Positions 5,884 to 37,135 of a stretch of DNA of 64,000 bases are shown one piece after another. The position numbers and the translations under genes were made by a program. How positions within the stretch are numbered: position 1 is the first letter of the stretch; every line of letters begins with the position of its first letter. The DNA is from an uncultured Gemmatimonadales bacterium (lineage in GTDB: Bacteria > Gemmatimonadota > Gemmatimonadetes > Gemmatimonadales > GWC2-71-9): contig CAVYSW010000003.1 in the NCBI GenBank assembly GCA_963771275.1, positions 448,001-512,000 on the forward strand. The letters run 5' to 3'. Under the pieces are notes generated by a model. That model saw nothing but the letters and a program-made list of their open reading frames with translations, did no database searches and was not told the origin of the DNA.

Positions 5884-5937
5884 GGGCCTCCGCGGCGGCA
5901 TTGCGCCGCCGGCCGGCGCGAAGCCACCTTTCGGTGC

Positions 5938-8886
5938 ATGCCCAGCCTGCAGATCGACGGGTCACGCATCGACGCCCCCGAAGGGGCGACCATTCTCGCG
6001 GCCGCGCGCGCCGCCGGCATGGCCATCCCGACCCTGTGCTGGTATCCCAAGCTCCCGGTCGTCGGCAACTGCCGCATTTGCGTGGTCGCGGTCGCCGGAG
6101 AGGCGAAGCTGCTTCCCGCCTGCGCCACGGTCGTGGCGGAGGGCATGCGGGTGCAGACGGAGACCCCGGAGGTCGTCGCGGCGCGCCGCGGCGTGCTGCG
6201 ATTCCTGCTGGAGCGCTACCCTGCCGACCACCTGCTGACCGGCGGCCGGACCACCCCGCGCAATGAGTTCGAGGAGTACGTGGTCCGCTACGGCGTGACG
6301 CCGCGGCCGGCGGCGCAGCATGCCCTGCCGCTGCGCGCCGGCGACGAGCGGCCCGGCGACCCGATGATCGCCCACGACATGAGCCTGTGCATCCTGTGCA
6401 CGCGCTGCGTGCGGGCGTGCGAGGACATCCAGGTGGTGGGCGTGCTCGACGTGGCGCATCGCGGCGACCGTGCCCAGATCATCGTGGGCGCCGACGGCGA
6501 CCCCGACAAGGCGCACTGCACGTGGTGCGGGGAGTGCGTCCGCGTCTGCCCGACGGGGGCGATCTTCGAGGTGATTCCCCGGGAGCGGTTCGGGACGGCG
6601 CGGGTGACGCCCGACCGGGTCGTCCGCTCGGTGTGCCCGTACTGCGGCGTCGGCTGTCAGGTGGACCTGCACGTCAAGGACAATGCAGTGGTGCGCGTCA
6701 CGTCGCCGTCCTTCGAGGAGGTGACCCCCAACGACGGCTCCACGTGCGTCAAGGGTCGGTTCGGCTACGACTTCACGCAGCACCGCGATCGCCTGACCAG
6801 GCCGCTGATCCGCAAGGGCTGGGAGCGGCGCGACGGCGGCTGGGCGTGGACCGGCCCGACCGACGCGCGGCGCCGCGCCGGCCCGTGGCACAGCATGACC
6901 GAGGAGGGGGCCCAGTCCAAGCCGCCTGCCCCACCCCGGGCGGTCGGCAAGCGGATCCGCGACCTGCCGCTGCTCGAGCGCGTGACCCAGGACATCCGCG
7001 ACCGGGCCACCACGCCGGCTGCGTGGTACGAGCCGTTCCGCGAGGCGACGTGGGACGAGGCGCTCTCGCTCGTGAGCCAGGAGCTGGTGCGGGTGCACCG
7101 CGCGCACGGCGCCGAGGCGATGGCGGTATTCCAGAGCGCCAAGTGCACGAACGAGGAGAACTACCTGCAGCAGCGGCTGTTCCGCGCCGCGTTCGGCACC
7201 AACAACATCGACCACTGCACGCGACTGTGTCACTCCACCAGCGTGTCGGCGATGCAGGACGCGCTCAGCACGGCCGCGGCGTCGGGATCGATGCGCGAGG
7301 TGGAGGAGGCCTGCGACGTGATCCTGATCGCCGGCGCCAACACGACCGAGACGCACCCCGTGTTCGGGGCGGCGATCAAGCGCGCGCAACGGCGGGGCGC
7401 GTTCCTGATCGTGGCGGACCCGCGGCGGATCGAGCTTGCCGCGCGGGCGGACCTCCACCTGCAGATGCAGCCCGGCACCGACGTCGCGCTGTTCAACGCG
7501 ATGCTGCACCACATCCTGGCGGCGGGTCTCGAGGACCGCGGGTTCATCGCGTCGCGCACCAACGGCTTCGACGCGGTGCGGGCCGCCGTGGCGCCCTACA
7601 CGCCCGAGCGGGCCGCGGCGATCACCGGCGTGCCGGCCGGGCTGATCCGTGCGGCCGCCGAGCGCTACGCGCGCGGGCCCAACACCACGACGATCTGGGC
7701 CATGGGCCTGACGCAGCACCTCACCGGCCACGACATGGTGACGGCGCTCCTCAACCTGATCCTCGCCACGGGGATGATCGGCCGGTGGGGCAGCGCCATG
7801 CTGCCGGTCCGCGGACAGAACAACGTGCAAGGCGCTTCCGACATGGGCGCCATCCCGTTCGTGTACCCGGACTACCAGCCGGTAGCCGATCCGGCCATTC
7901 GCGCCAAGTTCGCCGCGGCGTGGGGCGTGGACCCGGAAACGATGTCGCTCACGCCCGGGCTCAAGGTGACGGAAATGGCGCGGGAGGGCTCACCGATCCG
8001 CGCGCTGTACATCATGGGCGAGAACCCGATCATCTCCGACCCCGACATCGCGCATGCCGAGGCGTGGTTCCGCACGGTCGAGTTCCTCACGGTGCAGGAC
8101 CTGTTCCTCACCGAGACGGCGCGCTACGCGGACGTGGTGCTGCCGGGCGGCTCGTTTGCCGAAAAGACCGGCACGTTCGCCAACACGGAGCGGCGGATCC
8201 AAGTCGCCGACAAGGCGGTCGAGCCGCCTGGCGAAGCACGCGCGGATTGGGAGATCCTCGTGGATCTGTCGCGGCGCGTTGGCCTCGCCACGCCGTTCGC
8301 GTCGCCCGAGCAGGTGATGGAGGAAATCAGCCAGCTCGCGCCGGCGTGGGCCGGCATCACCTACCAGCGGCTGCGGGCCGGCGGGCTCCAGTATCCGGTC
8401 CCCACCGCCGACCACCCCGGCACGGCGTTCCTGTTCGGCGAGCGGTTCCCCACCACCGATGGCCGGGCGACGTTCCACGCCGTCGAGTACGCGGACCCCG
8501 GCGAGCTGCCCGACGCGGAGTATCCGTTCGTGATGTGCACCGGCCGGCAGCTGTATCACTGGCACACCGGGACCATGACGCGGCGCTCGCGTGGCCTCGA
8601 CGCCCGCGAGCCGATCGCCACGGTCGAGGTGAATCCCGCAGACGCCGCCGACCTGGGGGTGAGCGACGGCGATCCGGTGCGGATCACGAGCCGACGCAAC
8701 TCGATGCTGATCGCGGTGCGCGTGTCGGACCGGGTAGCGCGGTGGCAGGTGTTCGTCCCGTTCCACTTCCGCGAGGCGGCGGCCAACTTGCTCACCAACC
8801 CGGTGCTCGAGCCGCACGCGAAAATGGCCGCGCTCAAGGTCTGCGCCGTGCGGCTCGAGGCGGTGGGCGCGCCGTCGCCGGCTTGA
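5938..8886 (+). CDS. fdhF: Formate dehydrogenase alpha subunit (FdhF/FdsA-like, Mo/W-bis-MGD, Cys ligand)
   Basis: 2Fe-2S (PTLC..GNCRIC..C), 2x4Fe-4S (CILCTRCVRAC, CTWCGECVRVCP), CPYCGVGC, NNIDHCTRLCH, RGQNNVQG, C-terminal molybdopterin-binding domain. Confidence 0.9.
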   Translation: MPSLQIDGSRIDAPEGATILAAARAAGMAIPTLCWYPKLPVVGNCRICVVAVAGEAKLLPACATVVAEGMRVQTETPEVVAARRGVLRFLLERYPADHLLTGGRTTPRNEFEEYVVRYGVTPRPAAQHALPLRAGDERPGDPMIAHDMSLCILCTRCVRACEDIQVVGVLDVAHRGDRAQIIVGADGDPDKAHCTWCGECVRVCPTGAIFEVIPRERFGTARVTPDRVVRSVCPYCGVGCQVDLHVKDNAVVRVTSPSFEEVTPNDGSTCVKGRFGYDFTQHRDRLTRPLIRKGWERRDGGWAWTGPTDARRRAGPWHSMTEEGAQSKPPAPPRAVGKRIRDLPLLERVTQDIRDRATTPAAWYEPFREATWDEALSLVSQELVRVHRAHGAEAMAVFQSAKCTNEENYLQQRLFRAAFGTNNIDHCTRLCHSTSVSAMQDALSTAAASGSMREVEEACDVILIAGANTTETHPVFGAAIKRAQRRGAFLIVADPRRIELAARADLHLQMQPGTDVALFNAMLHHILAAGLEDRGFIASRTNGFDAVRAAVAPYTPERAAAITGVPAGLIRAAAERYARGPNTTTIWAMGLTQHLTGHDMVTALLNLILATGMIGRWGSAMLPVRGQNNVQGASDMGAIPFVYPDYQPVADPAIRAKFAAAWGVDPETMSLTPGLKVTEMAREGSPIRALYIMGENPIISDPDIAHAEAWFRTVEFLTVQDLFLTETARYADVVLPGGSFAEKTGTFANTERRIQVADKAVEPPGEARADWEILVDLSRRVGLATPFASPEQVMEEISQLAPAWAGITYQRLRAGGLQYPVPTADHPGTAFLFGERFPTTDGRATFHAVEYADPGELPDAEYPFVMCTGRQLYHWHTGTMTRRSRGLDAREPIATVEVNPADAADLGVSDGDPVRITSRRNSMLIAVRVSDRVARWQVFVPFHFREAAANLLTNPVLEPHAKMAALKVCAVRLEAVGAPSPA

Positions 8887-8901
8887 GGAGGGGCGAGGCT
8901 C

Positions 8902-9693
8902 ATGGATCTCGGAATCGCGGGGCGTGTGGCGCTGGTGTGCGGCTCGTCGAGCGGGCTGGGCCGTGCCATCGCCGCAGCCTTCGTGGAAGCCGGCTGCCGG
9001 GTGGCAATCAATGCCCGCACCCCGGCCACGCTGGCGCAGGCGGCCGACGCGCTGCGCCGGCACGCCACCGCGGACGTCGCGGCGTTTCCGGCGGACGTGA
9101 GCGTGCCCGCGGAGGCCACCGGGCTCGTGGAGCGCGTGCAGCACGAGCTGGGAGGCGTCGACATCCTGATCTGCAACGCCGGCGGCCCGCCGGCGGCACC
9201 GTTCGCCGACGTTCCGGCCGAGCAGTGGCAGGCCGCCCTCGCGCTGAACCTCCTGTCCACCGTGCATCTCTGCCGGACGGCCGTGCCGATCATGCGACGG
9301 CGCGGCTGGGGGCGCGTGGTCTGTCTCACCAGCGTCGCCGCCAAGCAGCCGCTGCCCGGCCTGATCCTGTCGTCCACCGCGCGCGCGGGGGTGCTCGGGT
9401 TCGCCAAGAGCCTCGCCGACGAGGTGGCGACCGCGGGCATCACGGTCAACGTGGTCTGCCCCGGATACATGCGCACGGGACGCGTCGAGGATCTCGCGGC
9501 CGCGCGGGCGGCGCAGAGCGGCCGTCGCATCGAGGACGTGCTGGCGGGGACGATCGGCAACATCCCGCTCGGCAGGATGGGCGAGCCGGAGGAGCTCGCC
9601 GCCGCGGTCGCGTTTCTGGCGTCCGAGCCCGCGCGCTATATTACCGGCGCCGTCCTCCAGGTGGACGGGGGGTTCACGCGGAGCGTGGTGTAG
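8902..9693 (+). CDS. SDR family oxidoreductase
   Basis: CGSSSGLG, NAGGPP, ITVNVVCPG, YITGAVLQVDGG; LSSTAR in place of YxxxK (atypical SDR subgroup). Confidence 0.9.
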   Translation: MDLGIAGRVALVCGSSSGLGRAIAAAFVEAGCRVAINARTPATLAQAADALRRHATADVAAFPADVSVPAEATGLVERVQHELGGVDILICNAGGPPAAPFADVPAEQWQAALALNLLSTVHLCRTAVPIMRRRGWGRVVCLTSVAAKQPLPGLILSSTARAGVLGFAKSLADEVATAGITVNVVCPGYMRTGRVEDLAAARAAQSGRRIEDVLAGTIGNIPLGRMGEPEELAAAVAFLASEPARYITGAVLQVDGGFTRSVV

Positions 9694-9768
9694 GGCGGCA
9701 CGGCGGCATGGCGCCAGCCCGGCCCGCGACCCGCACCGCCGTTCGACCATCCGTTCTACTGAGGTTTC

Positions 9769-10803
9769 ATGCGCGCCATTCGCAAGTCCCGCCCGGGCGC
9801 CGGTCTCGAAGTCTGTGACGTTCCCAAACCCTCGTACGGGCCCGCCGACGTGCTGATCCAGGTTCACCATGCCGGCGTGTGCGGCACCGACCTGCACATC
9901 GCCCAATGGGACGAGTGGGCCCAGGGCCGGATCAAGCCGCCCGTCGTGCTGGGGCACGAGTTCGCGGGCGAAGTCGTCGCCGTCGGCAAGGACGTGGACG
10001 AGTTCGCGCCCGGCGAGCTGGTCACCGCGGAAGGGCACATCGTGTGCGGGCACTGCCGGCAGTGCCGCACCGGCAACGGCCACATCTGCCAGCGCACGTC
10101 GATCATCGGAGTGGACCGGGACGGCGCGTTCACCGAGCAGATCGCCATGCCCGCGACCAACGTCATGGCGTTGGGCGGGATCCCCACCACCATCGGCGCC
10201 ATCATGGACCCGATCGGCAACGCGTTCCACACCGTGCTCACCGGCACCGAGGTGCCGGGGTCGTCGGTCCTGGTGCTGGGGTGCGGCCCGATCGGCTGCT
10301 TTGCCGTCGGCATCGCCCGCGCCGCCGGCGCGGTTTCGGTGATCGCAACGGACGTGAACCCCACCCGGCTGGAGCTGGCGCGCCGGATGGGCGCGCAGGT
10401 GCTGATCAACGCGCAGACGGACGACGTGGTGAGCCGCGTGCGCGACGCGACGGGCGGCGAGGGCGCAGACATCGTGTGCGAGATGTCCGGCCACCCCGGG
10501 GCGCTCGCGCAGGCGTTCAAGTCCGTCCGCCTCGGAGGGCGCGTCAATCTGCTGGGCCTGCCCAAGGGCGAAGTGACCCTCAACCTCTCGACCGACATGA
10601 TCTTCAAGGGCGTAACGGCCTACGGCGTCATCGGCAGGCGGATGTACGAGACGTGGCACCAGATGCGCACGTTTCTCGGGTCGGGCCACCTGGATCCCAT
10701 GCCGGTGGTCACTCACCGCTTCCCGCTGGAGCGGATCGACGACGCGCTCGAGGCGATCGCGTCGGGCGCCGCGGGGAAGGTGATCCTCGAGATCGCCGGG
10801 TGA
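9769..10803 (+). CDS. tdh: L-threonine 3-dehydrogenase
   Basis: CGTDLHI, GHEFAG, AEGHIVCGHCRQC..GHIC, DPIGNAFHT, GRRMYETW. Confidence 0.93.
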   Translation: MRAIRKSRPGAGLEVCDVPKPSYGPADVLIQVHHAGVCGTDLHIAQWDEWAQGRIKPPVVLGHEFAGEVVAVGKDVDEFAPGELVTAEGHIVCGHCRQCRTGNGHICQRTSIIGVDRDGAFTEQIAMPATNVMALGGIPTTIGAIMDPIGNAFHTVLTGTEVPGSSVLVLGCGPIGCFAVGIARAAGAVSVIATDVNPTRLELARRMGAQVLINAQTDDVVSRVRDATGGEGADIVCEMSGHPGALAQAFKSVRLGGRVNLLGLPKGEVTLNLSTDMIFKGVTAYGVIGRRMYETWHQMRTFLGSGHLDPMPVVTHRFPLERIDDALEAIASGAAGKVILEIAG

Positions 10804-11174
10804 TCATCGGGATCGGCACGGACGTGGCGGACATCGGCCGCTTCACCGCGGAGACGGGCCGCCACGGCGCCGACCTCCTCGCCGCGTTCCTCACGCCGAC
10901 GGAGCTGGCGGCATGCCGCGTCCACCCGCGCGGCCCCGCGGCCTCGGCGGCGCGGTTCGCCGCCAAGGAAGCCTGCGCCAAGGCGCTCGGCACCGGGGTG
11001 CTCGGCCGGCTGTCCTGGCAGGACATGGAGCTCCGCGAGACCGGCGCGGGCGCGACGCTCCACCTGACCGGCCGCGCACAGCAGCTTGCCGCAGCGCGCG
11101 GCGTCCGCGCCATTCACGTGAGCCTCACCCGGACCGCGCACCTCGCGGCCGCCGTCGTGGTCCTGGAAGGCTGA
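10800..11174 (+). CDS. acpS: Holo-ACP synthase (AcpS-type phosphopantetheinyl transferase)
   Basis: IIGIGTD, ARFAAKEACAKALGTG, IHVSLT; GTGA overlap with tdh. Confidence 0.9.
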   Translation: MIIGIGTDVADIGRFTAETGRHGADLLAAFLTPTELAACRVHPRGPAASAARFAAKEACAKALGTGVLGRLSWQDMELRETGAGATLHLTGRAQQLAAARGVRAIHVSLTRTAHLAAAVVVLEG

Positions 11175-11215
11175 CGCCCACTTTGCTGGAGGCCTCGAGC
11201 CAGAGGGCATCGATC

Positions 11216-11458
11216 ATGGAAGACGCGATTCTGGAGTACATCCGCGGCGAGTACCTCGAAGACGATGACGACGTGGAGCTGACCGCGAGCACGCCGCTGA
11301 TCTCGAGCGGCATCGTGGACAGCTTCAGCATGGTGAGCCTCAAGCGGTTCCTCGAGAAGAAATATCAGATCTCCATTCCCGACGACGACGCTTCCGCCGA
11401 GGCGTTCGACACCGTCGCGAGCATCGCGCGAGTCGTGCGAAAGCAACAGGGAGCGTGA
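11216..11458 (+). CDS. Stand-alone acyl/aminoacyl carrier protein (80 aa)
   Basis: Acidic protein with TPLISSGIVDSFSMV (Ppant Ser in DSF) and AFDTVASIA. Confidence 0.9.
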   Translation: MEDAILEYIRGEYLEDDDDVELTASTPLISSGIVDSFSMVSLKRFLEKKYQISIPDDDASAEAFDTVASIARVVRKQQGA

Positions 11459-11459
11459 T

Positions 11460-12707
<1,248 letters not shown>

Positions 12708-12727
12708 GGCGCGACCGGCTGGACGAC

Positions 12728-15013
12728 ATGGACGAGCATCGCGACCGCTGGTGGACGTCTCCCACCGCTGAGCTCGGGAAGGTCGTGCAGCTCGACCTTC
12801 CCGAGCCGTTTCCCACCGTCTACGGCGGAGCCCTGCCGGCCATCCAGGTGAGCTACGAGGCCTGGGGCGAGCTCAACTCCGCCCGCGACAATGCCGTGCT
12901 GGTGATCCACCCAATGACCGCGGATTGCCACGTGACCGGCGAGTACACCGGGCAACCGCCGGGATGGTGGGAGCCGCTCGTCGGCCCGGGGCGCGCGCTG
13001 GATACGGACCGGTTCTTCGTCGTCTGCCCCAACTTGCTGGGCGGGTGCTACGGCACCACCGGGCCGCGGTTTCCGGCGCCCGACGGAGAGCCCTATCTCG
13101 AGCGGTTCCCGTTGCTCACGCCGCGCGACATGATGCGGGTGCAGCGGCGGTTTCTCGCCGCACTGGGCATCGAGCGCGTCGCGCTGGTCATCGGCCCGAG
13201 CATGGGCGGCATGATCGCGTGGGAGTGGGCAATCGAGGCCCCGGAGGCCGCCGCCCGCATCGCGGTGGTCGCGGCGCCGCTGCGGACGTCGCCGCACCAG
13301 ATCGGCCTCAACTGGCTGCAGCGGCGCGGCATCGAGCTGGACATCACGGGCGACGAGGTCGTGGCCACCCTGGGCCAGATGGTGGCGCGCGGCGTCGGGA
13401 TGCTGAGCTACCGCTCGCCCGTGGGTCTCGAGGAGAAGTTCGGCCGCGAGTGGTTCACGCCGCCCGGCTCCATCCTCAAGGAGCGCGGGATGTTCAACGT
13501 CGAGTCGTGGCTGCGCCACCAGGGACGGCGCATCACGCAGCGCTTCGACCCCTATACGTACCTGCTGTTCAGCCGCGCGATGGACCTGCACGACGTGAGC
13601 CACGGGCGCGGCTACCTGGTGTCGGCGCTCTCCGGGGTGCGCGCCCGGGTCCTAGTGCTGGGCATCAGCTCCGACAACCTGTATCCACCGGCCGAGGTGA
13701 AGCATGGCGCGGACCTGCTCGATCACCTCGGCGCCGACGTGCGGTACGAGGAGATCCACTCCCCCAACGGCCACGACGCGTTCCTGCTCGATACCGACCA
13801 GCTCGACGAGATCCTGCGCGGCTTTCTGGCCGACCGGCGGGCCCGCGCGTCCCAGCCGAGCCTGCGGGAGGTCCGCCGCGTCCGCGTGGGCGTGCTCGGG
13901 GCCGGCCGGGTCGCGGCCTCGTTCATCCGGCTCGTCAGCGATCGCCAGGCGCACCTGGCACAGCACCACGGGCTGCAGATCGAGATCGGCGCCGTGGCGG
14001 AGATCGATCGAGAGAAGCCGCTCGATCCGGTGTTCGCGCAGCTCCCGCTCACGTACGAGCCCGAGACCCTGCCCGACCGCCAGGACCTGGACGTCCTGAT
14101 CGACCTCACCCGGGGCCTGCGCTCGTTGCCGCTCGTCGAGCGGACCCTGCGTCACCGCCGGTCGGTCGTGACGCCCAACAAGATCCTGGTGCGCACGCAC
14201 GGCGACGCGCTCGATCGTCTCGCGTTCGAGTACGGCGCGCGCCTAGCGTACCACGATTCCATCGCGGCGGGCTGGCCGCTGATTCTCACGCTCGAGCGCT
14301 CGCTGTCCCAGGCGCTGGTGGTCGGGCTCGAAGCGGTCCTCTCGAGCGCGTGCAACGTGATCCTCGAGCTGCTGGAACAGGGCATGCCGCTCGATCGCGC
14401 CGTCGCGGAGGCGGTAGGGCGTGACCTCACCGAGCCCGATCCCGAGCTCGATACGTCGGGCTGGGACAGCGCGCAGAAGCTCATGCTGCTCCTGAGCCGC
14501 GCCACGGGCCATCGCTACCTCGGCCACGAGGTCGCGCTCCACGGGCTCGAGACGGTGGATGCCGCGCTGGTGCGGCACGCGCCCGCGCACGACCTGCGCA
14601 TCAAGCTCGTGGCGATGGCGGCGGAGCAGCATGGCCAGCTGGCGGCGACGGTACGGCCGATGGCGGTCCGCCGGGAGAGCCACTTGGGACTGGTGCGCGG
14701 ACCGAACAACGTCGTCGTGACGTACGCGCCGGACGGCACGGAAATGGTCTACTCCGGCACGGGCGCCGGCCCCCTCCCGGTCGCGACCGCGGTGCTCAAC
14801 GACCTGATCGGGTTGTTCGATCCGCAGCATTCCTGGACCGGGAGGTTCCCGGCGGTCAGCGTGCGGATGCAGGCCCTGCAGTTCGCCGCATGGGTCCACA
14901 TCGAGAACGGCCGGCTCCGGACCGGCACGAGCGAGCGACCGGGCGCGGTGCCGCTCGTTCCGACGGTTCGCCGAGACGGCGCGCCAGCCCGAAGCACACT
15001 GTCACGGGCATGA
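12728..15013 (+). CDS. Fusion: homoserine O-acetyltransferase (MetX family) + homoserine dehydrogenase-like domain
   Basis: N-terminal GWWEPLVGPG, GPSMGG, SDNLYPP, GHDAFL triad; C-terminal GVLGAGRV, VVTPNK, EPDPELDTSGWDSAQK, GAGPLPVATAVLNDL. Confidence 0.88.
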   Translation: MDEHRDRWWTSPTAELGKVVQLDLPEPFPTVYGGALPAIQVSYEAWGELNSARDNAVLVIHPMTADCHVTGEYTGQPPGWWEPLVGPGRALDTDRFFVVCPNLLGGCYGTTGPRFPAPDGEPYLERFPLLTPRDMMRVQRRFLAALGIERVALVIGPSMGGMIAWEWAIEAPEAAARIAVVAAPLRTSPHQIGLNWLQRRGIELDITGDEVVATLGQMVARGVGMLSYRSPVGLEEKFGREWFTPPGSILKERGMFNVESWLRHQGRRITQRFDPYTYLLFSRAMDLHDVSHGRGYLVSALSGVRARVLVLGISSDNLYPPAEVKHGADLLDHLGADVRYEEIHSPNGHDAFLLDTDQLDEILRGFLADRRARASQPSLREVRRVRVGVLGAGRVAASFIRLVSDRQAHLAQHHGLQIEIGAVAEIDREKPLDPVFAQLPLTYEPETLPDRQDLDVLIDLTRGLRSLPLVERTLRHRRSVVTPNKILVRTHGDALDRLAFEYGARLAYHDSIAAGWPLILTLERSLSQALVVGLEAVLSSACNVILELLEQGMPLDRAVAEAVGRDLTEPDPELDTSGWDSAQKLMLLLSRATGHRYLGHEVALHGLETVDAALVRHAPAHDLRIKLVAMAAEQHGQLAATVRPMAVRRESHLGLVRGPNNVVVTYAPDGTEMVYSGTGAGPLPVATAVLNDLIGLFDPQHSWTGRFPAVSVRMQALQFAAWVHIENGRLRTGTSERPGAVPLVPTVRRDGAPARSTLSRA

Positions 15014-15054
15014 ATCGTGCGGCGGTCACGAATCCCCAGCATGGGAAGGTCGCG

Positions 15055-16800
15055 ATGAGCAACATCGGTTCCTACGACGCGCGTCGCCGAGGCTTCACCT
15101 GGGAGACGGCCAAGGCGGTGCTTGGCTGGCAGGAGGGCGAGATCCTCAACATCGGCGCCATGTGCGCCGACCGCCTCTGCGCGCGGGGCATGGGAGGCAC
15201 GACCGCGCTGATCTGGGAAGGGTTCGGCGACAAGAAGGCCACCTACACCTTCGACGATCTGCGCGTCTACTCCAACGCCTTCGCCCAGTTGCTCGCCGAT
15301 CGGGGGATCCGACCGGGCGAGCGCGTCTGCATCTTCATGGACCGCATTCCCAGCCTCTACATCTCCTTTCTCGGCATCCTCAAGCTCGGCGCCATTGCGC
15401 AGCCGCTGTTTTCGGCGTTCGGCGAGGACTCGCTCGAAGTGCGCCTGGCCAACGCGGAAACCACCGCCGTGCTCACGACGGCCAAGCACGTGAAGAAGGT
15501 CCGCAAGATCCGTGACAGGCTCCCCGCGCTACGCCACGTCATCGTGGTGGATGGGGATCCGGGCAAGACGCACGCCGACGAGGTGTTCTTCGACGTGCAG
15601 GCGGCACCGCGCGTCGAGCACTTCCCCGTCTTCCCCGCGACCCCCGAGACGCCCTCGGTGCTGCACTACACGTCGGGCACCACCGGCCAGCCCAAGGGCG
15701 CGTTGCACGTGCACAGCTCCGTCTGGGGCCAGGCGCTCACCACCCACTGGGTCCTCGACCTGCAGCCGAACGACGTCTACTGGTGCACGGCCGATCCCGG
15801 TTGGGTAACCGGGACCAGCTACGGGATCATCGGACCCTGGACCCTGGGCGTCACCCAATGCGTGTTCGACGCCGGATTCCTCGCCGCACGCTGGTACCAG
15901 TTCATTCAGGACCACCGCGTCACGGTCTGGTACTCGGCGCCGACGGCGATTCGCTCGCTGATGCGCGAGGGAGACGACGTACCGAAGCGCTACGACCTCT
16001 CGTCGTTGCGACACCTCGCGTCGGTCGGCGAGCCGCTCAACCCCGAAGCGGTCCTGTGGAGCGAGCAGGTGCTCGGGCTCCCGTTCCACGACAACTTCTG
16101 GCAGACGGAGACCGGGGCGATGATGATCGCCAACTACCCCGGGATGCCGATCAAGCCGGGCTCGATGGGCAAGCCGTTCCCCGGCATCGAGGCCGCCGTG
16201 CTCGACCTCAAGACGCACGAGCCGATCGCGCAGCCCGGCAAGATCGGCCTGATCGCGTTCCGGCCCGGCTGGCCCTCTATGTTCCGGACGTACTGGAAGA
16301 AGGAGGACGTCTACCGCAGCAAGTTCGTCGGCGCTCCCGAGGGCGCCACACCCGATGCCCTGCGGACCGCGCGCGACATCTGGTACGTCTCGGGTGATCG
16401 GGCAAGCATCGATCCGGATGGGTACTTCTGGTTCGTGGGGCGCGACGACGACGTGATCAACACCGGTGGACACCTGGTGGGGCCGTTCGAGGTGGAATCC
16501 GCCTTGATCGAGCACGAGGCCGTGGCCGAGGCCGCGGTGGTCGGCAAGCCGGACGAGATCAACATGGAGGTCGTCAAGGCGTTCGTGGCACTCAAGTCGG
16601 GCTACACGGCGTCGGCGGAGCTGGAGCTCGACATCATGAACTTCGTCCGCAAGAAACTCTCGCCCCTGGCGATGCCGCAGGAGATCGAGTTCCGCGACAA
16701 GCTCCCCAAGACGCGCTCGGGGAAGATCCTGCGGCGGTACCTGCGCGCCCTGGAGTGGGGTGACGAGCCGGGCGACTTGTCGACCCTGGAAGACGACTAG
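15055..16800 (+). CDS. acsA: Acetate--CoA ligase (AcsA-type adenylate-forming enzyme)
   Basis: YTSGTTGQPKG, WCTADPGWVTGTSYG, DNFWQTETG, PKTRSGKILRR; RBS GGAAGG before ATG 15055 (alternative 15010). Confidence 0.9.
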   Translation: MSNIGSYDARRRGFTWETAKAVLGWQEGEILNIGAMCADRLCARGMGGTTALIWEGFGDKKATYTFDDLRVYSNAFAQLLADRGIRPGERVCIFMDRIPSLYISFLGILKLGAIAQPLFSAFGEDSLEVRLANAETTAVLTTAKHVKKVRKIRDRLPALRHVIVVDGDPGKTHADEVFFDVQAAPRVEHFPVFPATPETPSVLHYTSGTTGQPKGALHVHSSVWGQALTTHWVLDLQPNDVYWCTADPGWVTGTSYGIIGPWTLGVTQCVFDAGFLAARWYQFIQDHRVTVWYSAPTAIRSLMREGDDVPKRYDLSSLRHLASVGEPLNPEAVLWSEQVLGLPFHDNFWQTETGAMMIANYPGMPIKPGSMGKPFPGIEAAVLDLKTHEPIAQPGKIGLIAFRPGWPSMFRTYWKKEDVYRSKFVGAPEGATPDALRTARDIWYVSGDRASIDPDGYFWFVGRDDDVINTGGHLVGPFEVESALIEHEAVAEAAVVGKPDEINMEVVKAFVALKSGYTASAELELDIMNFVRKKLSPLAMPQEIEFRDKLPKTRSGKILRRYLRALEWGDEPGDLSTLEDD

Positions 16801-16860
16801 GTGCCGGTCCAGCGCAGCAGACGTAAAGCAAAGCATAACATGGAGATAGCAAGCGTTGAC

Positions 16861-16890
16861 GGCCCCACCCGGGCGACCCCGGGTGGGGCC
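16861..16890 (+). terminator. Perfect 13-bp GC-rich hairpin downstream of acsA (terminator or stabiliser candidate; no U-tract)
   Basis: GGCCCCACCCGGG-cgac-CCCGGGTGGGGCC. Confidence 0.5.
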
Positions 16891-17244
16891 TCCGCATGAC
16901 GGGGCCGGCACGATGCCCCGCGGCAGGTCGGGAGGGAGGCGTGCGGCCTGTCACGGAATTCCTGGCCGCCGCACGTAGCTTTGTGGCGGTCGCGCGCTTC
17001 AAGTAGTTTCGCGACCTCGGCTCTTAACCTCCCTGTTCCCAATGTGGTAGAACGGGGTGTCCTTGGCCGCCGGGCTCGCGTTTTTCAGCGTCGGGCCCTA
17101 TTTTCGGGGGACTTGGCAGGCCGGGTCGCGGTTGGGGACCCGCTCACATCACGTTCTGGGGTTCAGGCGGTCCGCGGACCGCGCGGTGAGCCGGCGCCGC
17201 AGCCACGGTCGCTCGCGCCCACACTGGCTCGGAGGGAAGGACTG

Positions 17245-17928
17245 ATGCGCAGACTACCGGGAGTCGTGGTACTGGGCGCGCTGCTTGCGGCGGCGCCGCT
17301 GCACGCGCAGGGGACCGGCTGGCAGAACATGTGGTTCTGGGGCATTCACGGGGGCCTGAGCGCGTACAAGACGCCGACCACGGGAACCTCGACCCAGTTC
17401 GCCGTCGACGTTGGTGCGCACTGGCTGATCACCGGCAGGCGCATGGGCCTATATCTCGCCTACGACCAGCAGTTCTATCCCAATGGCCCATCGACCGCCC
17501 CGGGGAACCCCACGTCACAGATCACCGATCCCACCTCGGGGACCGGCGTGCGGGACGTGCAGTTCGATCGGGGCCGCTACATCCAGGGCGACCTGCTCGC
17601 CATCCCGCTGAACGGCCCGCTGCAGATCTATGTGGGCGCCGGGTTCACGATTCAGAACATCAGCGACGCCGTCCCCATGGGCAGCTTCGCGACGCCGGAC
17701 GACCAGGCCGCCTCACAGGCCCTCGTGAACGATGCCGCGAGCCGTGCGTTCCTGAACTTCATGGGCGGCTTCCAGCTGCTGCTACAGGGCAAGTTCGCCG
17801 TGTTCGGGCACTACGAGTTCATTCCGTCGGCGAAGAACTTCCTGCTCTCGTCCGAGCAGCATGTGCTCTCGGGCGGTGTGCGCATCGCCCTTTCGGGGCG
17901 GCGCGAGGACGTCGGCATCGAGCGGTAG
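17245..17928 (+). CDS. Secreted protein, probable small outer-membrane beta-barrel
   Basis: Strong RBS GGAGGGAAGG; signal peptide ending APLHAQ; amphipathic aromatic strands (WFWGIHGG, IYVGAGF, VLSGGVRIAL). Confidence 0.65.
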   Translation: MRRLPGVVVLGALLAAAPLHAQGTGWQNMWFWGIHGGLSAYKTPTTGTSTQFAVDVGAHWLITGRRMGLYLAYDQQFYPNGPSTAPGNPTSQITDPTSGTGVRDVQFDRGRYIQGDLLAIPLNGPLQIYVGAGFTIQNISDAVPMGSFATPDDQAASQALVNDAASRAFLNFMGGFQLLLQGKFAVFGHYEFIPSAKNFLLSSEQHVLSGGVRIALSGRREDVGIER

Positions 17929-17952
17929 CCGCGCTTCATCTGCGGTTCCCTG

Positions 17953-17988
17953 TCGCGCCCGGGATCAGCACGCTGGTCCCGGGCGCGA
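17953..17988. terminator. 16-bp-stem hairpin between convergent genes (bidirectional terminator candidate)
   Basis: TCGCGCCCGGGATCAG-cacg-CTGGTCCCGGGCGCGA, one G-U pair. Confidence 0.6.
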
Positions 17989-18560
17989 TGTCCAGGGGGA
18001 CCCCGCCTCGAGCAACCGCAATGGCCAGCTCGCGGCGCGCGTGACGCCGATGCGGGTGGTCACCAGGACCGGGCTGCGGCGCGCCCGAGCGGGCCGGAGA
18101 ATCCGCAGGCGCGGCCCGTCGAGCGGCAGCCCGTTCATGGAGCCGGTGATCCCCAGCGCCTGACACAAGCGGGACGGTCCGGAGCAGAGCCGGCGATCGT
18201 CCCGCGTGCCGCGCCGGCGGCGCATCGCCTCGAGTCCGGCCAGCGGCTCCAGCGCACGAATCAGCACGGCCGCGGGGTAGCCCTCCCGCTCGGTCACCGC
18301 GTTGCAGCACCAGTGCATGCCGTAGATGAAGTAGACGTACGCGGTGCCCGGCGGCCCGAACAGCCGGTCGTTCCGCGCCGTGCGGCGCCCGCAGTAGCCG
18401 TGGGCCGCCGGGTCGTGCGGTCCGACGTACCCTTCCACCTCGACAATCCGTCCTGAGGCGGACACACCCCGCACGTGGGTCTCGAGAATGCACCCCAAAA
18501 GGGCGCGCGCGACACGGACCGTGTCGCGCGCGTAGAACGAAGGCCTGAGCGGGACCGCTA
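17965..18560 (-). CDS. mpg: DNA-3-methyladenine glycosylase (AAG/MPG family); start uncertain
   Basis: FYARDTVRVARALLG, GRIVEVEGY, YVYFIYGMHWC, AVLIRALEP, SGPSRLCQALGI, TTRIGV; first canonical start is TTG 18498 but conserved sequence extends upstream. Confidence 0.88.
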
Positions 18561-18562
18561 CG

Positions 18563-20371
18563 TCAGCTCTCGTCGGCCCCGTCCTTCGGCTGCCCGAGCA
18601 TCGCCCGCTGCAGAGCGGCGCTCATGCGCTTGAACAGGCTGCCCGCCTCGGCCCCCGGCTGCTCGGGCTCCTCGACGGGAGGCGGTGGTGGGGGAGGAGC
18701 CGGTCGGGCCACCACCTCCTGGCTTCTCTCCGGCGCGCGCGACGGCTCCGGGCTGGTGCGGCTCTCTTCCGAACCCAACCCAGGGGCCGATCGGTCGGCC
18801 GGCTCAGCCGGACCGCCTGCGCCGCGCCGACCTCGCCGGCCGCGCACCCCGCGATTGTAGGTGACGGGACCCACGGCAGCCGGCTCCTCCTGGGGAGGCG
18901 GGGACGCCGTCGGCTCGAACCGGCGTTCGGTCGTCACCGCAGGGGCACCCCCACGGGACCCGTGACGGAACCGGGGATTGCGGGGCGATTCCTTGGCGGG
19001 TCGCCCTTCACTTGCCACCGGGGGAGCGGAGTCCCGCGACGGAGCTGGTTCCCGCGTCTCATGCTCCGCACCACCTTCCTCACGTCCTCGCCGCCGGCCC
19101 CGACCGCCGCGCGCACCACGGCCGCCCCGCTCACCGCGCTCACCGCGACGGCGACCCTGCTCTCCCTCGGGCTTCCCGGGCTCCTGCTCGGCCTGGCCCT
19201 CGTCGGCCGCCGTCTCCGGGACGGGTGCCGGCCGAAGTCGGAGCAGGTAGGCGCCACCATCCGCCTTGGCGAGATCCACCACACCCGCGTCATGGGCCTG
19301 GCGCAGGAACCGCTGGAAGCGGCGGCTTTCGAGTACGGGGTCTTCGGCCCGCCCGTGCAGCTCCGCCATGCGCTCGCGCGCCTGTTCGGCGTCGGTGGCT
19401 TCCTCGCCCGTGGCGCCAAGGTCCTCGAGCGCCTGGCGCAGCAGGCCCAGCGCTTCCGCCAGCGTCATCCCCTCGGGCGCCGTTCGGCCACGCGGCGTCC
19501 CACCGCGCGGACGCTCACCACGCTCACCACGCCGGGCGCGCGGCTCGACGGTCGCCGGGCGCGGCACTGGCGCGGCCGAGCCGGGCTCGAGCTCCATCGG
19601 GACGTTGGCGTTCGGCCCCAGGGCGATCTCGTACTGGCCGTTCTCCATCTTGTTGAGCCGGAGCAGGCCGCGCCGCGCCGATTCCTGGAGGAACTTGCTG
19701 TACTTGCTGAAGCCCGCGTCCTTCTCGTCGAAGTTGGGATCGAGGTCCTGCATCACCTGCTTCAGCCGGTCGGAACGCATCACGTCGTTGGCCTGCTGCA
19801 TCCGGGTGGCGGATTCGACCACCAGCTCCCACGGGTCGCGTCGCCGATGCTCGACTTCGCCCTCCTTGATCAGGCCGGTCAGCTCGTTGTAGCTGTAGTA
19901 CTCGTCGCAGTTCTGGATCAGCAGGTCGCTGGACGATTCGCGCATCCCGACGCCGATCACATACTTGCCATACTCCTTGAGCTTGAGGACCAGGCTCGAG
20001 AAGTCCGAGTCGCCGGACAGCAGGATGTAGGTGCCGATCTCGGGCCGGGTGAAGACCAGCTCGAGCGCGTCGATCGCGAGCCGGATGTCGGTCGCGTTCT
20101 TCTTGTTGGAGCCGAAGGCCGGGGCGAAGATCAGGTCGATCGACGCCTCCGCCAAGGGCACGATGTACTGCGGATAGCGCCGCCAGTCGGCGTAGGCCCG
20201 CTGCACCGAGATCTTGCCCTTGAAGACCTCGGAGCTCAGCAGCCGCTTCAGCTGGACCTGGAGATCCGAGCGGATCCCCATCGTCACGTTGTCGAAGTCG
20301 ATTAGGAGCGCGGCGTTGGGAGCATGCCGCAGGGGTTCGGGATACGCGGCGGCTGTTCCCCGCCGGGTCAT
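18563..20371 (-). CDS. NYN-domain (LabA/DUF88-like) ribonuclease with OST-HTH/LOTUS-like domains and a long low-complexity tail
   Basis: LLIDFDN, RAYADW, KNATDIRLAID, LLSGDSDF, CDEY; LDPNFDEKDAGFSKYSKFL. Confidence 0.85.
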   Translation of the reverse strand: MTRRGTAAAYPEPLRHAPNAALLIDFDNVTMGIRSDLQVQLKRLLSSEVFKGKISVQRAYADWRRYPQYIVPLAEASIDLIFAPAFGSNKKNATDIRLAIDALELVFTRPEIGTYILLSGDSDFSSLVLKLKEYGKYVIGVGMRESSSDLLIQNCDEYYSYNELTGLIKEGEVEHRRRDPWELVVESATRMQQANDVMRSDRLKQVMQDLDPNFDEKDAGFSKYSKFLQESARRGLLRLNKMENGQYEIALGPNANVPMELEPGSAAPVPRPATVEPRARRGERGERPRGGTPRGRTAPEGMTLAEALGLLRQALEDLGATGEEATDAEQARERMAELHGRAEDPVLESRRFQRFLRQAHDAGVVDLAKADGGAYLLRLRPAPVPETAADEGQAEQEPGKPEGEQGRRRGERGERGGRGARGGRGRRRGREEGGAEHETREPAPSRDSAPPVASEGRPAKESPRNPRFRHGSRGGAPAVTTERRFEPTASPPPQEEPAAVGPVTYNRGVRGRRGRRGAGGPAEPADRSAPGLGSEESRTSPEPSRAPERSQEVVARPAPPPPPPPVEEPEQPGAEAGSLFKRMSAALQRAMLGQPKDGADES

Positions 20372-20376
20372 TTCAA

Positions 20377-21951
20377 TCACGTTGCGCTCAATTCCAGGCC
20401 GACGACCTGCGCCAGCTCCCTTCGCTTCACCTTCCCGCTCCCGGTCAGGGGGAAGGCGTCGAAGAAGCGGACGAGGTCCGGCACCTTGTTGCCAGCCACA
20501 TGGTCGCGGGCGTACGCCTTGAGCTCGTCGCCCGTCACGATTGCACCCTCCACCGGCACGACGCAGGCGCAGACGAGCTCCCCGAGGATCTCGTGGGGCA
20601 CGCCCACCACGCACGCGTCGTCCACCGCCGGATGCGTCCGGAAGATGTCCTCCAGCTCCCGCGGGTAGATGCTGTACCCTCCGCGGATGATCGTCTCCTT
20701 GCGCCGGCCCACGATGGTCACGTAGCCGCGCTCGTCCACGATGGCGAGGTCGCCCGTGAGGAAGAACCCCTCCGCCGTGAACGAGCGGCGCGTCTCCGTG
20801 GGCATGCGATGATACCCGGCCATCACGTTCGGCCCCCTGACCGCCAATTCCCCGACGGCCTCCGGCCCGTGCAGCGCGCCATCCGTCACATCCACCACCC
20901 GCACTTCCACCCCCGGAAGCGGCCGCCCGACTGTCTGCGTCCGCGCTTCGGCGTCGTCGTCGAACCGCGTGATCGTGATCGTCGGGCCGGTCTCGGTGAG
21001 CCCGTAGGCGATCTGCACGTCATTCCACCGGCGGATCCGCTGCACCAGGTCGGCGGATACCGGGCTGCCGGCCACGATGCCGGTCCGCACGGTGGACAGG
21101 TCCCGGCTCCCGAACGACGCATCGCGCATCAAGAGCTGGAACATGGTGGGCACGCCATGGACGACGGTGGCGCGCTCCCGCTGGATCAGGTCCAGCGCGG
21201 TGGCGGGCTCGAACCGGTCCTGCAGCACCAGCGTGGCGCCCGAGAGCACCGTGGTGAGCACCACGTGGGTACCGAAGACCGTGAACAGCGGAACGGCGCT
21301 CCACACCCGATCATCGGGGCGCAGCGCCAGCCCGTCCGCCGTCAACAGCGCCGTCTGCACCAGATTGCGGTGCGTCAGCACGACGCCCTTGGGCTTGCCC
21401 ATCGTCCCCGACGTGTAGATCAGGGCAAGCGGCGTGGTCCCGGGATCGCGGACCACCAGCGGCGCCGGCGTCTGGCGCCGGCCCCGGGCCACGAGATCCG
21501 CGAACTGGAAGATCCGGTCGTCGTACCACATCTCGTCCGGACCGACCGTGACCAGGTAACGCAGGTCAGGCAGGTCGGCGAACAACTCCTCGAAGGTCTC
21601 GAGGTACTCGAACTCGCCCGCCGACTGCGCCGCCACGGTGATCACCGCCTCGGCATGCCGCAGCTCGTACTTGAGCTCGTGATATCCCACCGAGGGATTC
21701 ACCGGCACCACCACGGCGCCCAGCCGCGCGGCCGCGAGCAGCGTGACGACCCACTCGGGGCCCCCCGGGAGATCGATCGCGATGCGATGCCCCTCGCCGA
21801 TCCCCAGCTCGCTCAACGCCGCCGCCAGCGCCGTCGCCTCGGCATCCACCTGCGCGTAGGTCATGCGCCGCGTGGCCGAGACGAGGCACTCCCGGCCCCC
21901 CTCTCGGGCAACCTGTTGCGCAAACGACTCGGCGAGGTGGTACGTCGTCAA
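20377..21951 (-). CDS. Class I adenylate-forming enzyme (acyl-CoA ligase)
   Basis: [40 protein letters not shown] start after GGAGG and an upstream TAGAAT. Confidence 0.88.
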
Positions 21952-22039
21952 AAGCCCTCCCCCCATTCTACTGTGGGGAACCTTTGAAGCTACACGGACT
22001 TAGGGGTTTCCTCAATGGAGCGTCGGCGGGCTACCCCTG

Positions 22040-22459
22040 CTATTCACCCATCACCTTCACCACCAAGCGCTTGCGCCGCTTGCCGTCCCACTCCCCGTAG
22101 AACACCCGCTGCCAGGGACCGAGATCCAGCACCCCGTTGGTCACGGGGAGGATCACCTCGTGCCCGACGGTCAGGCTGCGCAGATGGGCCGCGGCATTGT
22201 CCTCCCCAGTCTCGTTGTGGCGATACCGGGTTGGGTCCCACGGCGCGATCGTCCCCTCGAGCCACGCGAGGATATCCTGCCACAGCCCGGACTCGTGGTC
22301 GTTCACGAAGACCGACGCGGTGATGTGCATGGCGGAGACGAGTACCATGCCCTCGCGTATTGCCGCGACCCGGACCTGCTCGGCGACCTCGTCCGTGATG
22401 TCGATGATCTCCTGGCGACGCCTGGTAGTGAACCAGAGATAGTGGGTGTGGGTCTTCAT
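22040..22459 (-). CDS. yjbQ: YjbQ family protein
   Basis: HITASVFVND, YRHNETGEDNAAAHL, LDLGPWQRVFYGEWDG. Confidence 0.9.
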   Translation of the reverse strand: MKTHTHYLWFTTRRRQEIIDITDEVAEQVRVAAIREGMVLVSAMHITASVFVNDHESGLWQDILAWLEGTIAPWDPTRYRHNETGEDNAAAHLRSLTVGHEVILPVTNGVLDLGPWQRVFYGEWDGKRRKRLVVKVMGE

Positions 22460-22465
22460 GGGGTG

Positions 22466-22583
22466 GATGGCCGATAGCCGATGGCCGATAGCTGATGGCC
22501 GTTGAGGGTAGTCGCGGTCACGAGCCCCGGTCAACCAGCCACCCACGAACCACGTTCGGCAATCGGCAATCGGCTATCGGCTA
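22466..22583. repeat. Two inverted heptamer tandem arrays flanking a 55-bp spacer
   Basis: (GATRGCY)x5 at 22466-22500 and (TCGGCWA)x4 at 22556-22583, approximately reverse complements of each other. Confidence 0.85.
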
Positions 22584-22586
22584 CCG

Positions 22587-23144
22587 CTACAGGGCCCGCA
22601 GGGTTGCGAGCGTCTCCTCGCCGTAGAACAGCCGAATGTACTTCGCCTGCACGGGCGTGAGCCGGCGCACGGCCCAGGTCAGGTGGACGAAGTGCGGCTC
22701 GGTGGGAGGCCGCACGGGGTACATGCCGCACTCGTCCGGCAGGTGATTGCCTTTGCGCGTGTTGCAGGTGGAGCAGGCCGTGACCACGTTGGTCCAGTCG
22801 TTGCTGCCGCCCCGCGAGATCGGCACGAGGTGATCGCGGGTGAGGCACTCGCGATGCCGGAAGTCCATCGCGTTCCGGCTGCAGAACTGGCAGCGGTACT
22901 CGTCACGCGCGAACAGGAAGGTGTTCGTGACCTGGCGGCGGAACCGGCGCGGGACGTGGACGAACCGGACCAGTCGGATCACGACCGGGCGCGGCACGGC
23001 CATCGTGGAGCTCCGCACCACGCGCCCCGGATCCGACTCGACGATCTCCGCCTTGCCGTCGATCACCAAGCGAAGCGCGCGCCGCACCGGAACCATGGTG
23101 AGCGGCTCGAACGACGCGTTGAGAGCAAGACAGCGCACGTGCAT
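22587..23144 (-). CDS. HNH endonuclease (widespread McrA-like family)
   Basis: LALNASFEPL, RDEYRCQFC, TRDHLVPISRGG, WTNVVTACSTCNTRKGN. Confidence 0.9.
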   Translation of the reverse strand: MHVRCLALNASFEPLTMVPVRRALRLVIDGKAEIVESDPGRVVRSSTMAVPRPVVIRLVRFVHVPRRFRRQVTNTFLFARDEYRCQFCSRNAMDFRHRECLTRDHLVPISRGGSNDWTNVVTACSTCNTRKGNHLPDECGMYPVRPPTEPHFVHLTWAVRRLTPVQAKYIRLFYGEETLATLRAL

Positions 23145-23270
23145 AGCGAAAAGTCGCGATCGAAACCCGACGGGCTCCACTGCCAGACGGGACCTCCGTG
23201 AAGCATGCAGTTTAGCGGGCGGTACAACCGGGGTGCAAGCGGCGTGGGGTCGTCGGGCGGGAACCGCGGC

Positions 23271-37056: not shown

Positions 37057-37135
37057 GCGCGTAAGCTACCGATGCGCGGCGTCGCCCGGCAGACGTGCTG
37101 GCTCGCCTGCGCTCCGTCGTCTACATTCGCCGGCC

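Follow-up and report, generated by a model that had tools for sequence, protein, structure and literature searches.

The window analysed here is a 64,000 nt stretch from an uncultured Gemmatimonadales bacterium (GenBank assembly GCA_963771275.1, contig CAVYSW010000003.1, positions 448,001 to 512,000 of the forward strand). The system in question is a cassette of six genes at positions 9769-16800 of the window that encodes, in this order, a threonine dehydrogenase (tdh), a phosphopantetheinyl transferase (PPTase; acpS), a small acyl carrier protein (ACP), an oxoamine synthase (kbl), a fused metX-hom protein and an AMP-forming ligase. All six genes lie on the forward strand with overlaps or gaps of at most 41 nt (Table 1). 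The analysed stretch has a G+C content of approximately 71%, and most long open reading frames (ORFs) in it are therefore spurious. Reading frames were chosen by translation and the gene junctions were inspected at the nucleotide level. A preliminary description of this DNA had reported six co-oriented genes, with tdh and acpS overlapping and ACP and kbl one nucleotide apart, and the frames and junctions confirm this arrangement: the GTG start codon of acpS overlaps the tdh stop codon as GTGA, and kbl starts 1 nt after the ACP stop codon. What is given there as metX/hom is one fused frame. The ACP gene begins 41 nt past acpS and is preceded by GAGGG. Two ATG codons could start the ligase gene. 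The one at 15055 is the most likely, with GGAAGG six nucleotides upstream and a 41-nt gap to metX-hom, while the one at 15010 overlaps the metX-hom stop codon as ATGA; both were preferred over an ATG at 14890, which merely opens the longest ORF.

Table 1. Genes of the cassette, with window coordinates and principal profile matches (bit scores against model cut-offs).
Gene	Product	Coordinates	Strand	Basis
tdh	Zn-dependent L-threonine 3-dehydrogenase, 344 aa	9769-10803	+	NF003808, 433 bits vs 380 cut-off; Pfam ADH_N and ADH_zinc_N
acpS	AcpS-type 4'-phosphopantetheinyl transferase, 124 aa	10800-11174	+	TIGR00516, 86.5 vs 59.8 bits; PF01648, 54.6 vs 25
ACP	DltC-like carrier, 80 aa	11216-11458	+	PF00550, 25.7 bits vs 20.8
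kbl	Glycine C-acetyltransferase-type alpha-oxoamine synthase, 415 aa	11460-12707	+	TIGR01822, 586 vs 493 bits; NF005394, 576 vs 460
metX-hom	Single fused frame, 761 aa	12728-15013	+	MetX N-terminal half, Hom C-terminal half; begins 20 nt past kbl
ligase	AcsA-type AMP-forming ligase	15055-16800 (alternative ATG 15010)	+	PRK04319 (acetate--CoA ligase), 752 vs 729 bits

Tdh also matches the NCBIfam model TIGR00692, at 413 bits and under its cut-off of 458. The ACP carries the motif GIVDSFSM, in which residue 36 is the presumed phosphopantetheine serine, and its NCBIfam matches, to the DltC, AsbD and AmcB models, are all sub-threshold. Kbl is matched by PDB chains 7bxp and 1fc4 (named 2-amino-3-ketobutyrate coenzyme A (CoA) ligase) at E values of 1e-138 to 1e-142, and the best PDB match of the ligase is 9g79 (named acetyl-CoA synthetase; E = 4e-160). 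In the fused protein, the MetX half scores 360 bits against NF001209 (cut-off 331; residues 20-372) and 346 bits against TIGR01392 (cut-off 500), and its translation contains GPSMGG, which we take to be the nucleophile elbow motif of MetX; NF004976 and PF00742 span residues 383-701 of the Hom half. In line with the preliminary description, Pfam and NCBIfam identified no ketosynthase, nonribosomal peptide synthetase (NRPS) or fatty-acid synthase domain in the cluster. A promoter and terminator scan of positions 8600-18200 gave no promoter-like site and no forward-strand terminator-like site, with counts not above those of shuffled sequences. Four RNA runs carrying the same species label yielded 0-18 partial reads, all in one conserved stretch of approximately 30 nt and diverging from the window beyond it; the organism is not shown to be present in those runs.

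Part of this cassette recurs widely. A word-index search returned 7326 relatives of the ACP family at E ≤ 0.001, and scanning one genome per species placed the ACP in at least 518 species genomes. Two scans were carried out, and the best 80 loci of each were examined; these 160 listed loci, out of the at least 518 species, are all from metagenome-assembled genomes (MAGs) of uncultured organisms. The best 80 loci span Gemmatimonadota, Acidobacteriota, Myxococcota, Fibrobacterota, Fermentibacteria, Zixibacteria, KSB1, Calditrichota, WOR-3, Ignavibacteriota, Bacteroidota, Delongbacteria, Chloroflexota, Planctomycetota and others. The second scan adds Latescibacterota and Chrysiogenales, and module loci span more than 15 phyla among the matches listed.

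Gene order was counted in 79 newly fetched loci. In 76 of the 79, a same-strand Kbl gene (at least 60% identity) begins no more than 800 nt past the ACP, and the recurrence of this adjacency in many phyla places the arrangement above chance. In 62 of the 79 loci the gene immediately upstream of the ACP, in the same orientation, encodes the ligase (59 of the 74 with enough sequence), and AcpS is present in 32 loci by tblastn or 41 by ORF clustering. A second Kbl of canonical type (50-59% identical) was found in 14 of the 79. All-against-all clustering of the flanking ORFs recovered no other family in more than nine loci, and the larger leftover clusters were opposite-strand shadows of the core genes. 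The module is therefore self-contained. AcpS, the AcsA-type ligase, ACP and Kbl therefore form a widely distributed, co-inherited core module, which bears out, for these four genes, the co-clustering across unrelated genomes that the preliminary description had proposed to look for. The three exceptions to the ACP-Kbl arrangement (L059, L061 and L074) are from Acidobacteriota and have a divergent TIGR01825-type oxoamine synthase upstream of the ligase. In these same three loci a fusion of an acetyl-CoA hydrolase/transferase with a GNAT domain adjoins the ACP.

Across phyla the ACP itself keeps 61-80% identity; it is very acidic, and D35 and S36 are invariant in all 41 aligned orthologues. Within Gemmatimonadota the distribution is patchy, with an ACP orthologue (E < 1e-30) in six of the 201 sampled genomes. 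Some of the Gemmatimonadota tallies below (ligases, MetX/Hom and other copies) include four genomes flagged as unpublished (G056, G095, G155 and G180), none of which has the module. Genome-wide counts refer to 48 module-bearing genomes (G201-G248), all of them MAGs whose completeness is not stated, and 46 of the 48 encode a module-type ligase. At L054:7478-8968, in a Myxococcales MAG that shows canonical Acs only, a threonine synthase gene stands directly upstream of ACP-Kbl.

The host genome (G000; 3.86 Mb in 11 contigs, 96.7% complete) groups with Gemmatimonadota and contains two PP-binding genes, the cassette ACP and one at C10:418120, immediately after a match to a FabG-like short-chain dehydrogenase/reductase (SDR; C10:417349-418044). 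It likewise contains two AcpS-type genes, the cassette copy and one at G000:C3:513118-513414. No NRPS or polyketide synthase (PKS) was found in the host genome, nor any other candidate client for the cassette ACP. With two AcpS genes and two carriers in the genome, the cassette AcpS and ACP are a dedicated pair, as the preliminary description had supposed; the objection that this acpS might be the single housekeeping copy does not apply. The second AcpS gene, presumably the housekeeping one, lies approximately 1.1 kb past the end of the window, flanked by an FTR1/cytochrome-like gene on one side and a large ORF on the other. Four of the seven module-bearing Gemmatimonadota have two ACPS genes (G000, G003, G018 and G067) and three have one (G012, G048 and G110); a private AcpS is common, not universal, among module hosts. 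Searched by tblastn with the cassette proteins, the host genome shows a single copy each of Hom, MetX, the Acs-type ligase, Tdh and Kbl; its only other oxoamine synthase is 34% identical to the cassette Kbl. The host also has thrC and thrB side by side (C3:607902-609733), an acetate kinase, and three pyridoxal phosphate (PLP) enzymes of the Cys/Met family, none above the MetY cut-off.

To characterise the ligase, we aligned 41 module ligases, retaining L064 and L119 despite an internal stop in their tblastn-derived translations. GWVTG and SVGEP are present in all 41 sequences and the Trp of WQTETG in 40, and the window ligase keeps all three together with the lysine motif PKTRSGK. The retained Trp before QTE, which the preliminary description had pointed out, is thus seen in the alignment. 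The four positions Val/Thr/Val/Trp, which we take to be the acetate pocket residues, are intact in 40 of the 41 module ligases. Other features set these ligases apart. In 40 of 41, Phe or Tyr stands where other Acs have a Trp before the Trp of WQTETG (F-W in the window versus W-W). A basic stretch, K-HV.KVRKI, is nearly invariant in module ligases, and the three non-module AcsA-type ligases and two canonical Acs compared from the same phylum lack it. Module ligases are 57-81% identical to one another and 50-52% identical to other AcsA-type ligases of the same phylum. Canonical long Acs is absent from four of the five Gemmatimonadota genomes with a module ligase, as would be expected if the module ligase simply displaced it, but this does not hold generally, as 20 of the 48 module genomes, from other lineages, keep a canonical Acs alongside the module ligase. 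The window ligase also has a 16-residue insertion (GAPEGATPDALRTARDI) just before WYVSGD, at positions 16321-16371 (ligase residues ~429-445, translation from 15037). The insertion is common to 11 of the 41 module ligases and absent from the rest and from non-module Acs.

A quick IQ-TREE phylogeny was built from 69 sequences. Of these, 46 are Kbls encoded next to an ACP: the window Kbl, four others from Gemmatimonadota, three taken from the first scan and 38 of the second scan's 76; one second-copy Kbl with a stop codon, from L052, was excluded. All 46, together with a stand-alone Kbl from genome G174, formed one clade with an SH-aLRT support of 99, sister to five second-copy Kbls. Escherichia coli Kbl, the remaining second copies and the usual Gemmatimonadota type (44-50%) fell outside this clade. 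Phyla are mixed within it, which indicates horizontal transfer. The ACP-linked Kbls also share a conserved C-terminal extension of approximately 13 residues (KYGILGL.K..I..YG) past the end of the matched PDB Kbl chains. A complex of the Kbl dimer with the ACP was predicted from 41-row alignments alongside three controls. The score was 0.44 (runs of 0.27, 0.44 and 0.56), against 0.00 for the best control. The mark used for such predictions is reached by 116 of 157 solved complexes and by 2 of 215 mismatched pairs, and those reaching it at a score of 0.60 or less comprise 18 of the 157 solved complexes and both of the passing mismatches. At least 89% of the contacts agree between the Kbl-ACP runs and partner pLDDT is at least 82, with no interface given. 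The prediction lends weak support to a Kbl-ACP complex.

A link between the module and threonine is suggested by its neighbours. Zn-type Tdh adjoins the module in the window and at five other loci (L011, L014, L019, L104 and L115), and Zn-type Tdh matches near the cut-off adjoin the ligase in genomes G247 and G248. Seven loci from other phyla have an epimerase-family protein beside the module; it matches solved SDR-type threonine dehydrogenases at E values of 1e-99 to 1e-122. That the module handles 2-amino-3-oxobutanoate is best supported by this recruitment of two non-homologous types of Tdh to the same neighbourhood. Zn-type Tdh (at least 337 bits) occurs in 12 of the 48 module genomes, exceeding the cut-off in 10, and SDR-type Tdh in 19, with no overlap between the two sets, giving 31 genomes in total. 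Neither type was found in the other 17 of these MAGs of unstated completeness. The preliminary description had proposed to look for co-clustering of tdh with the other genes, and this is borne out insofar as tdh is recurrently recruited beside the module but not as a constant feature of module genomes.

The metX-hom fusion has full-length relatives (54-68% identical) at 32 loci in Gemmatimonadota, Acidobacteriota, Eisenbacteria and Planctomycetota. ACP and/or Kbl adjoin it at 17 of the 32, in several gene orders, among them the order tdh, metX-hom, acpS, ligase, ACP, kbl in Terriglobia, and for 10 of the 14 fusion loci with nothing adjacent the ACP is found elsewhere in the genome. Leaving out L028, where the sequence ends too early to judge, 27 of the 31 genomes with the fusion also have the ACP. 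The host genome is the only one of 81 sampled Gemmatimonadota genomes to carry the fusion, whose closest relatives come from three other phyla, and the others have separate MetX (39-43%) and Hom (33-36%) matches or none at E ≤ 1e-40. The preliminary description had counted metX/hom among the parts of an acetyl cassette. The genome-wide association of the fusion with the ACP is in keeping with this, but MetX stands beside the ACP in only 3 of the 79 loci, and metX-hom is an accessory travelling with the module in one sublineage, not a core component. The co-occurrence fits a shared handling of acetyl groups, and plain co-transfer fits equally. As the fusion is the sole Hom and MetX of the genome, it must serve ordinary methionine and threonine synthesis; that it may also draw on acetyl-ACP is something we infer with less confidence.

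Taken at the level of sequence, the module is probably an undescribed way of handling the two-carbon acetyl group. The cassette AcpS would convert the 80-aa carrier into its holo form, and the ligase, whose acetate pocket is intact, would adenylate acetate and transfer it to the phosphopantetheine arm of the carrier to give acetyl-S-ACP. The PLP enzyme of the Kbl clade would then shuttle the acetyl group between the carrier and glycine or 2-amino-3-oxobutanoate, which Tdh would join to threonine, and the carrier would hold a small acetyl pool separate from CoA. We put the chances at about even that the ligase charges the ACP with acetate and that acetyl-ACP, with glycine and 2-amino-3-oxobutanoate, is what Kbl works on; the evidence is genomic, apart from one weak complex prediction. 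As to direction, we lean slightly towards the ligase charging the carrier first and Kbl condensing afterwards, as in the known systems that join a ligase, a dedicated carrier and an oxoamine synthase, among them AasR-AcpR-Spt (PMC9386255). The interpretation in the preliminary description, that a dedicated PPTase and carrier replace CoA as a private acetyl shuttle, is partly supported. Its fullest form, in which an acetyl-S-ACP pool insulated from CoA would be filled from acetate and ATP through the ligase, or from threonine through Tdh/Kbl, and spent both by reverse Kbl to make threonine from glycine and by MetX-Hom to O-acetylate homoserine for methionine, we hold to be doubtful.

Several observations weigh against carrier-dependent acetyl transfer. 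Tdh, Kbl, MetX (NF001209) and the ligase all score above the NCBIfam equivalog cut-offs of ordinary CoA-dependent enzymes, and PDB chains named Kbl and AcsA match the cassette enzymes at E values of 1e-138 or better. The window ligase is basic at the positions aligned with R194 and R584 of S. enterica Acs, which we take to be CoA-phosphate contacts, so the idea that the ligase has lost its CoA-binding residues was rejected, there being no signal of such a loss. The host genome yielded no further copies of the cassette ligase, Kbl, Hom or MetX, which may therefore need to do ordinary CoA-linked jobs. In G003 and L054, ACP-Kbl is present and a module-type ligase was not found; G174 has a Kbl of the ACP-linked clade and no ACP in its genome at E ≤ 1e-10; the 17 genomes in which neither Tdh type was found may reflect gaps in the MAGs or a Tdh-independent role; and the score of the Kbl-ACP complex sits in the weak band. 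An ordinary acetyl-CoA node operon would account for the enzyme scores, the PDB matches, the retained basic residues, the single copies, the Kbl of G174 that stands without ACP, and the four of five Gemmatimonadota in which the module ligase seems to substitute for canonical long Acs. In such an operon Tdh-Kbl would cleave threonine to glycine and acetyl-CoA, AcsA would make acetyl-CoA from acetate and MetX-Hom would use it, with the ACP and AcpS as neighbours that have a separate job, as a regulator or an unrelated acyl carrier. We regard this as rather unlikely given the adjacency of ACP and Kbl at 76 of 79 loci in more than 15 phyla (1 nt apart in the window), the second, co-inherited AcpS, and a genome that offers the carrier no other client (two PP-binding genes, no NRPS or PKS). 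The ACP-linked Kbls and ligases also form their own clades with their own signatures, and the canonical Acs kept in 20 of 48 genomes and the canonical-type second Kbl at 14 of 79 loci argue for a distinct function.

Driven by ATP, Tdh and Kbl might run in reverse and make threonine from glycine and acetate, with the carrier keeping the acetyl donor fully charged; a 1993 study by Marcus and Dekker is said to have found that coupled Tdh/Kbl can form threonine in vitro. The recruitment of both Tdh types beside the module favours such a synthesis, as does the precedent, in the available text of PMC9386255, that an AMP-forming ligase with a dedicated carrier normally loads it. Fourteen of the 48 module genomes have neither Hom nor ThrC, and 13 of these 14 have Tdh. 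It would be tempting to conclude that the module makes threonine in genomes without the usual pathway, but HisA/HisF is found in none of the 14, which are therefore general amino-acid auxotrophs. We rejected this argument, and the reverse Kbl/Tdh route put forward in the preliminary description draws no special support from these genomes, in which threonine breakdown is as plausible. ThrC is over the cut-off in 30 of the 48 module genomes and Hom in 21. The host genome itself has Hom as well as thrB and thrC, the last two being genes whose absence the preliminary description had proposed to check, so the cassette is no replacement for ThrB/ThrC. A canonical second Kbl beside the module, as at 14 of the 79 loci, would moreover give a futile cycle, and we consider threonine synthesis improbable. 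The same scavenger-like genomes, with Tdh in 13 of 14 and without histidine synthesis, fit a catabolic direction, in which threonine would be cleaved onto the carrier and the ligase reversed (acetyl-ACP + AMP + PPi to acetate + ATP), the private carrier letting the ratio of acetyl to free thiol rise high enough. Many of the host lineages are presumably anaerobic fermenters, and Syntrophus is reported to use an AMP-forming Acs in reverse. Energy conservation of this kind is nevertheless quite improbable: acetate kinase (AckA) is present in 9 of the 10 tested genomes without Hom and ThrC and in the host, so the usual ATP-yielding route exists and a reversed ligase is not needed for ATP gain. We therefore rejected the argument that a lack of acetate kinase makes the ligase run backwards. 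The ligases show no sequence sign of reversal, and the host, which keeps thrB, thrC and Hom, is not among the scavenger genomes. A small aminoketone or signal not tied to threonine, such as aminoacetone, a pyrazine-type compound or a product of another short acid (glycolate or propionate, for example), is very unlikely. It would suit the 17 genomes in which neither Tdh type was found and the F/Y-W signature, which differs from the W-W of acetate-specific Acs, and 2-amino-3-oxobutanoate is converted to aminoacetone by spontaneous decarboxylation according to the available text of PMC9814548. Set against this, no conserved tailoring, export or regulatory gene stands beside the module, its Kbl is near true Kbls, all four acetate-pocket positions are kept, and two types of Tdh are recruited to it.

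Annotation pipelines would label every gene of the cassette as housekeeping, as Tdh, Kbl, MetX and AcsA are all over curated cut-offs, and the unit is therefore invisible in databases. If the carrier does replace CoA, primary metabolism would gain a new instance of metabolic insulation, here of a two-carbon unit. An acetyl-ACP pool would amount to a carrier-protein branch of central amino-acid metabolism, in which Kbl, Acs and perhaps MetX use a protein-bound thiol instead of CoA, and flux models of threonine, glycine and acetate would change for Acidobacteriota, Gemmatimonadota, Zixibacteria, Aminicenantes, Ignavibacteria and others.

Directly upstream of the cassette, co-oriented and tightly packed with it, are a gene for a 1000-aa FdsA/NuoG-like molybdopterin oxidoreductase (5884-8886) and a FabG-like SDR (8887-9693). 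Weakly similar molybdopterin genes are found near the module in eight Acidobacteriota loci (L024, L030, L053, L067, L073, L087, L093 and L097). Downstream, the ORF at 16981-17928 begins with a signal-peptide-like stretch (MRRLPGVVVLGALLAAAPLHAQG) and matches no family in Pfam or NCBIfam; homologues that are 36-39% identical adjoin the module on the opposite strand in five Gemmatimonadota loci (L004, L006, L009, L010 and L031). Further along, the reverse strand at 18563-23270 encodes a 683-aa NYN-domain protein (18563-20614), a second, FadD-like AMP-binding ligase (20377-21999), a UPF0047 protein and an HNH endonuclease (22587-23270), and at 35488-37065 a response-regulator receiver domain fused to a PglZ domain.

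Literature searches, supplements aside, returned no description of an ACP-linked Kbl or an acetate-ACP ligase, and several known systems resemble the module in part. In DltA-DltC and AsbC-AsbD (names taken from the NCBIfam matches), a DltC-like carrier is likewise encoded beside an AMP-forming ligase. Those ligases load D-alanine or an aryl acid, for cell-wall or siderophore synthesis, and none is known to feed a Kbl. The ligase resembles the Bacillus subtilis-type AcsA (PRK04319; PDB 9g79), passing the cut-off of that model and keeping its acetate pocket and PKTRSGK motif, but module ligases form a clade of their own, have F/Y-W in place of W-W and a basic patch, and always occur with the ACP. 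The kbl-tdh operon of the E. coli type (NC_000913.3) and the tdh-kbl operon of C. necator (PMC9814548) contain the same two enzyme families, with threonine, glycine and a two-carbon thioester as the expected substrates. These known operons use CoA and are without a carrier protein, a PPTase and a ligase, all three of which the module has. For the module, the conserved ACP beside Kbl makes it doubtful that CoA accepts the acetyl group. Compared with E. coli Kbl, the ACP-linked Kbls are a separate clade with the conserved C-terminal extension.

The closest parallel in design is AasR-AcpR-Spt of Caulobacter and other Rhodobacteria, which likewise combines an ACS-like ligase, a dedicated small ACP and an alpha-oxoamine synthase. 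According to the available text of PMC9386255, the ACS-like enzyme acylates only its own ACP, the serine palmitoyltransferase (SPT) prefers acyl-AcpR over acyl-CoA, and the substrates are a long-chain fatty acyl group and serine, giving a sphingolipid precursor. The module instead has a Kbl and a ligase with an acetate-sized pocket, and its unit includes a PPTase, unlike AasR-AcpR-Spt. The cassette Kbl scores 307, 273 and 243 bits against the SPT models NF047600, NF047599 and NF047603, whose cut-offs are 640, 500 and 670. With the SPT models so far under their cut-offs and the ligase pocket acetate-sized, a sphingolipid or aminolipid pathway was rejected. A match to the OlsHI ACP is sub-threshold (61.6 bits against 130), and OlsH requires no ACP according to the available text of PMC12493201. 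By analogy, the module would work like the AasR-AcpR-Spt family but, with its Kbl scoring below the cut-offs of the SPT models, is not a member of it. We propose that the unit is a carrier-dependent oxoamine synthase system of putative function, grafted onto the Tdh-Kbl pathway.

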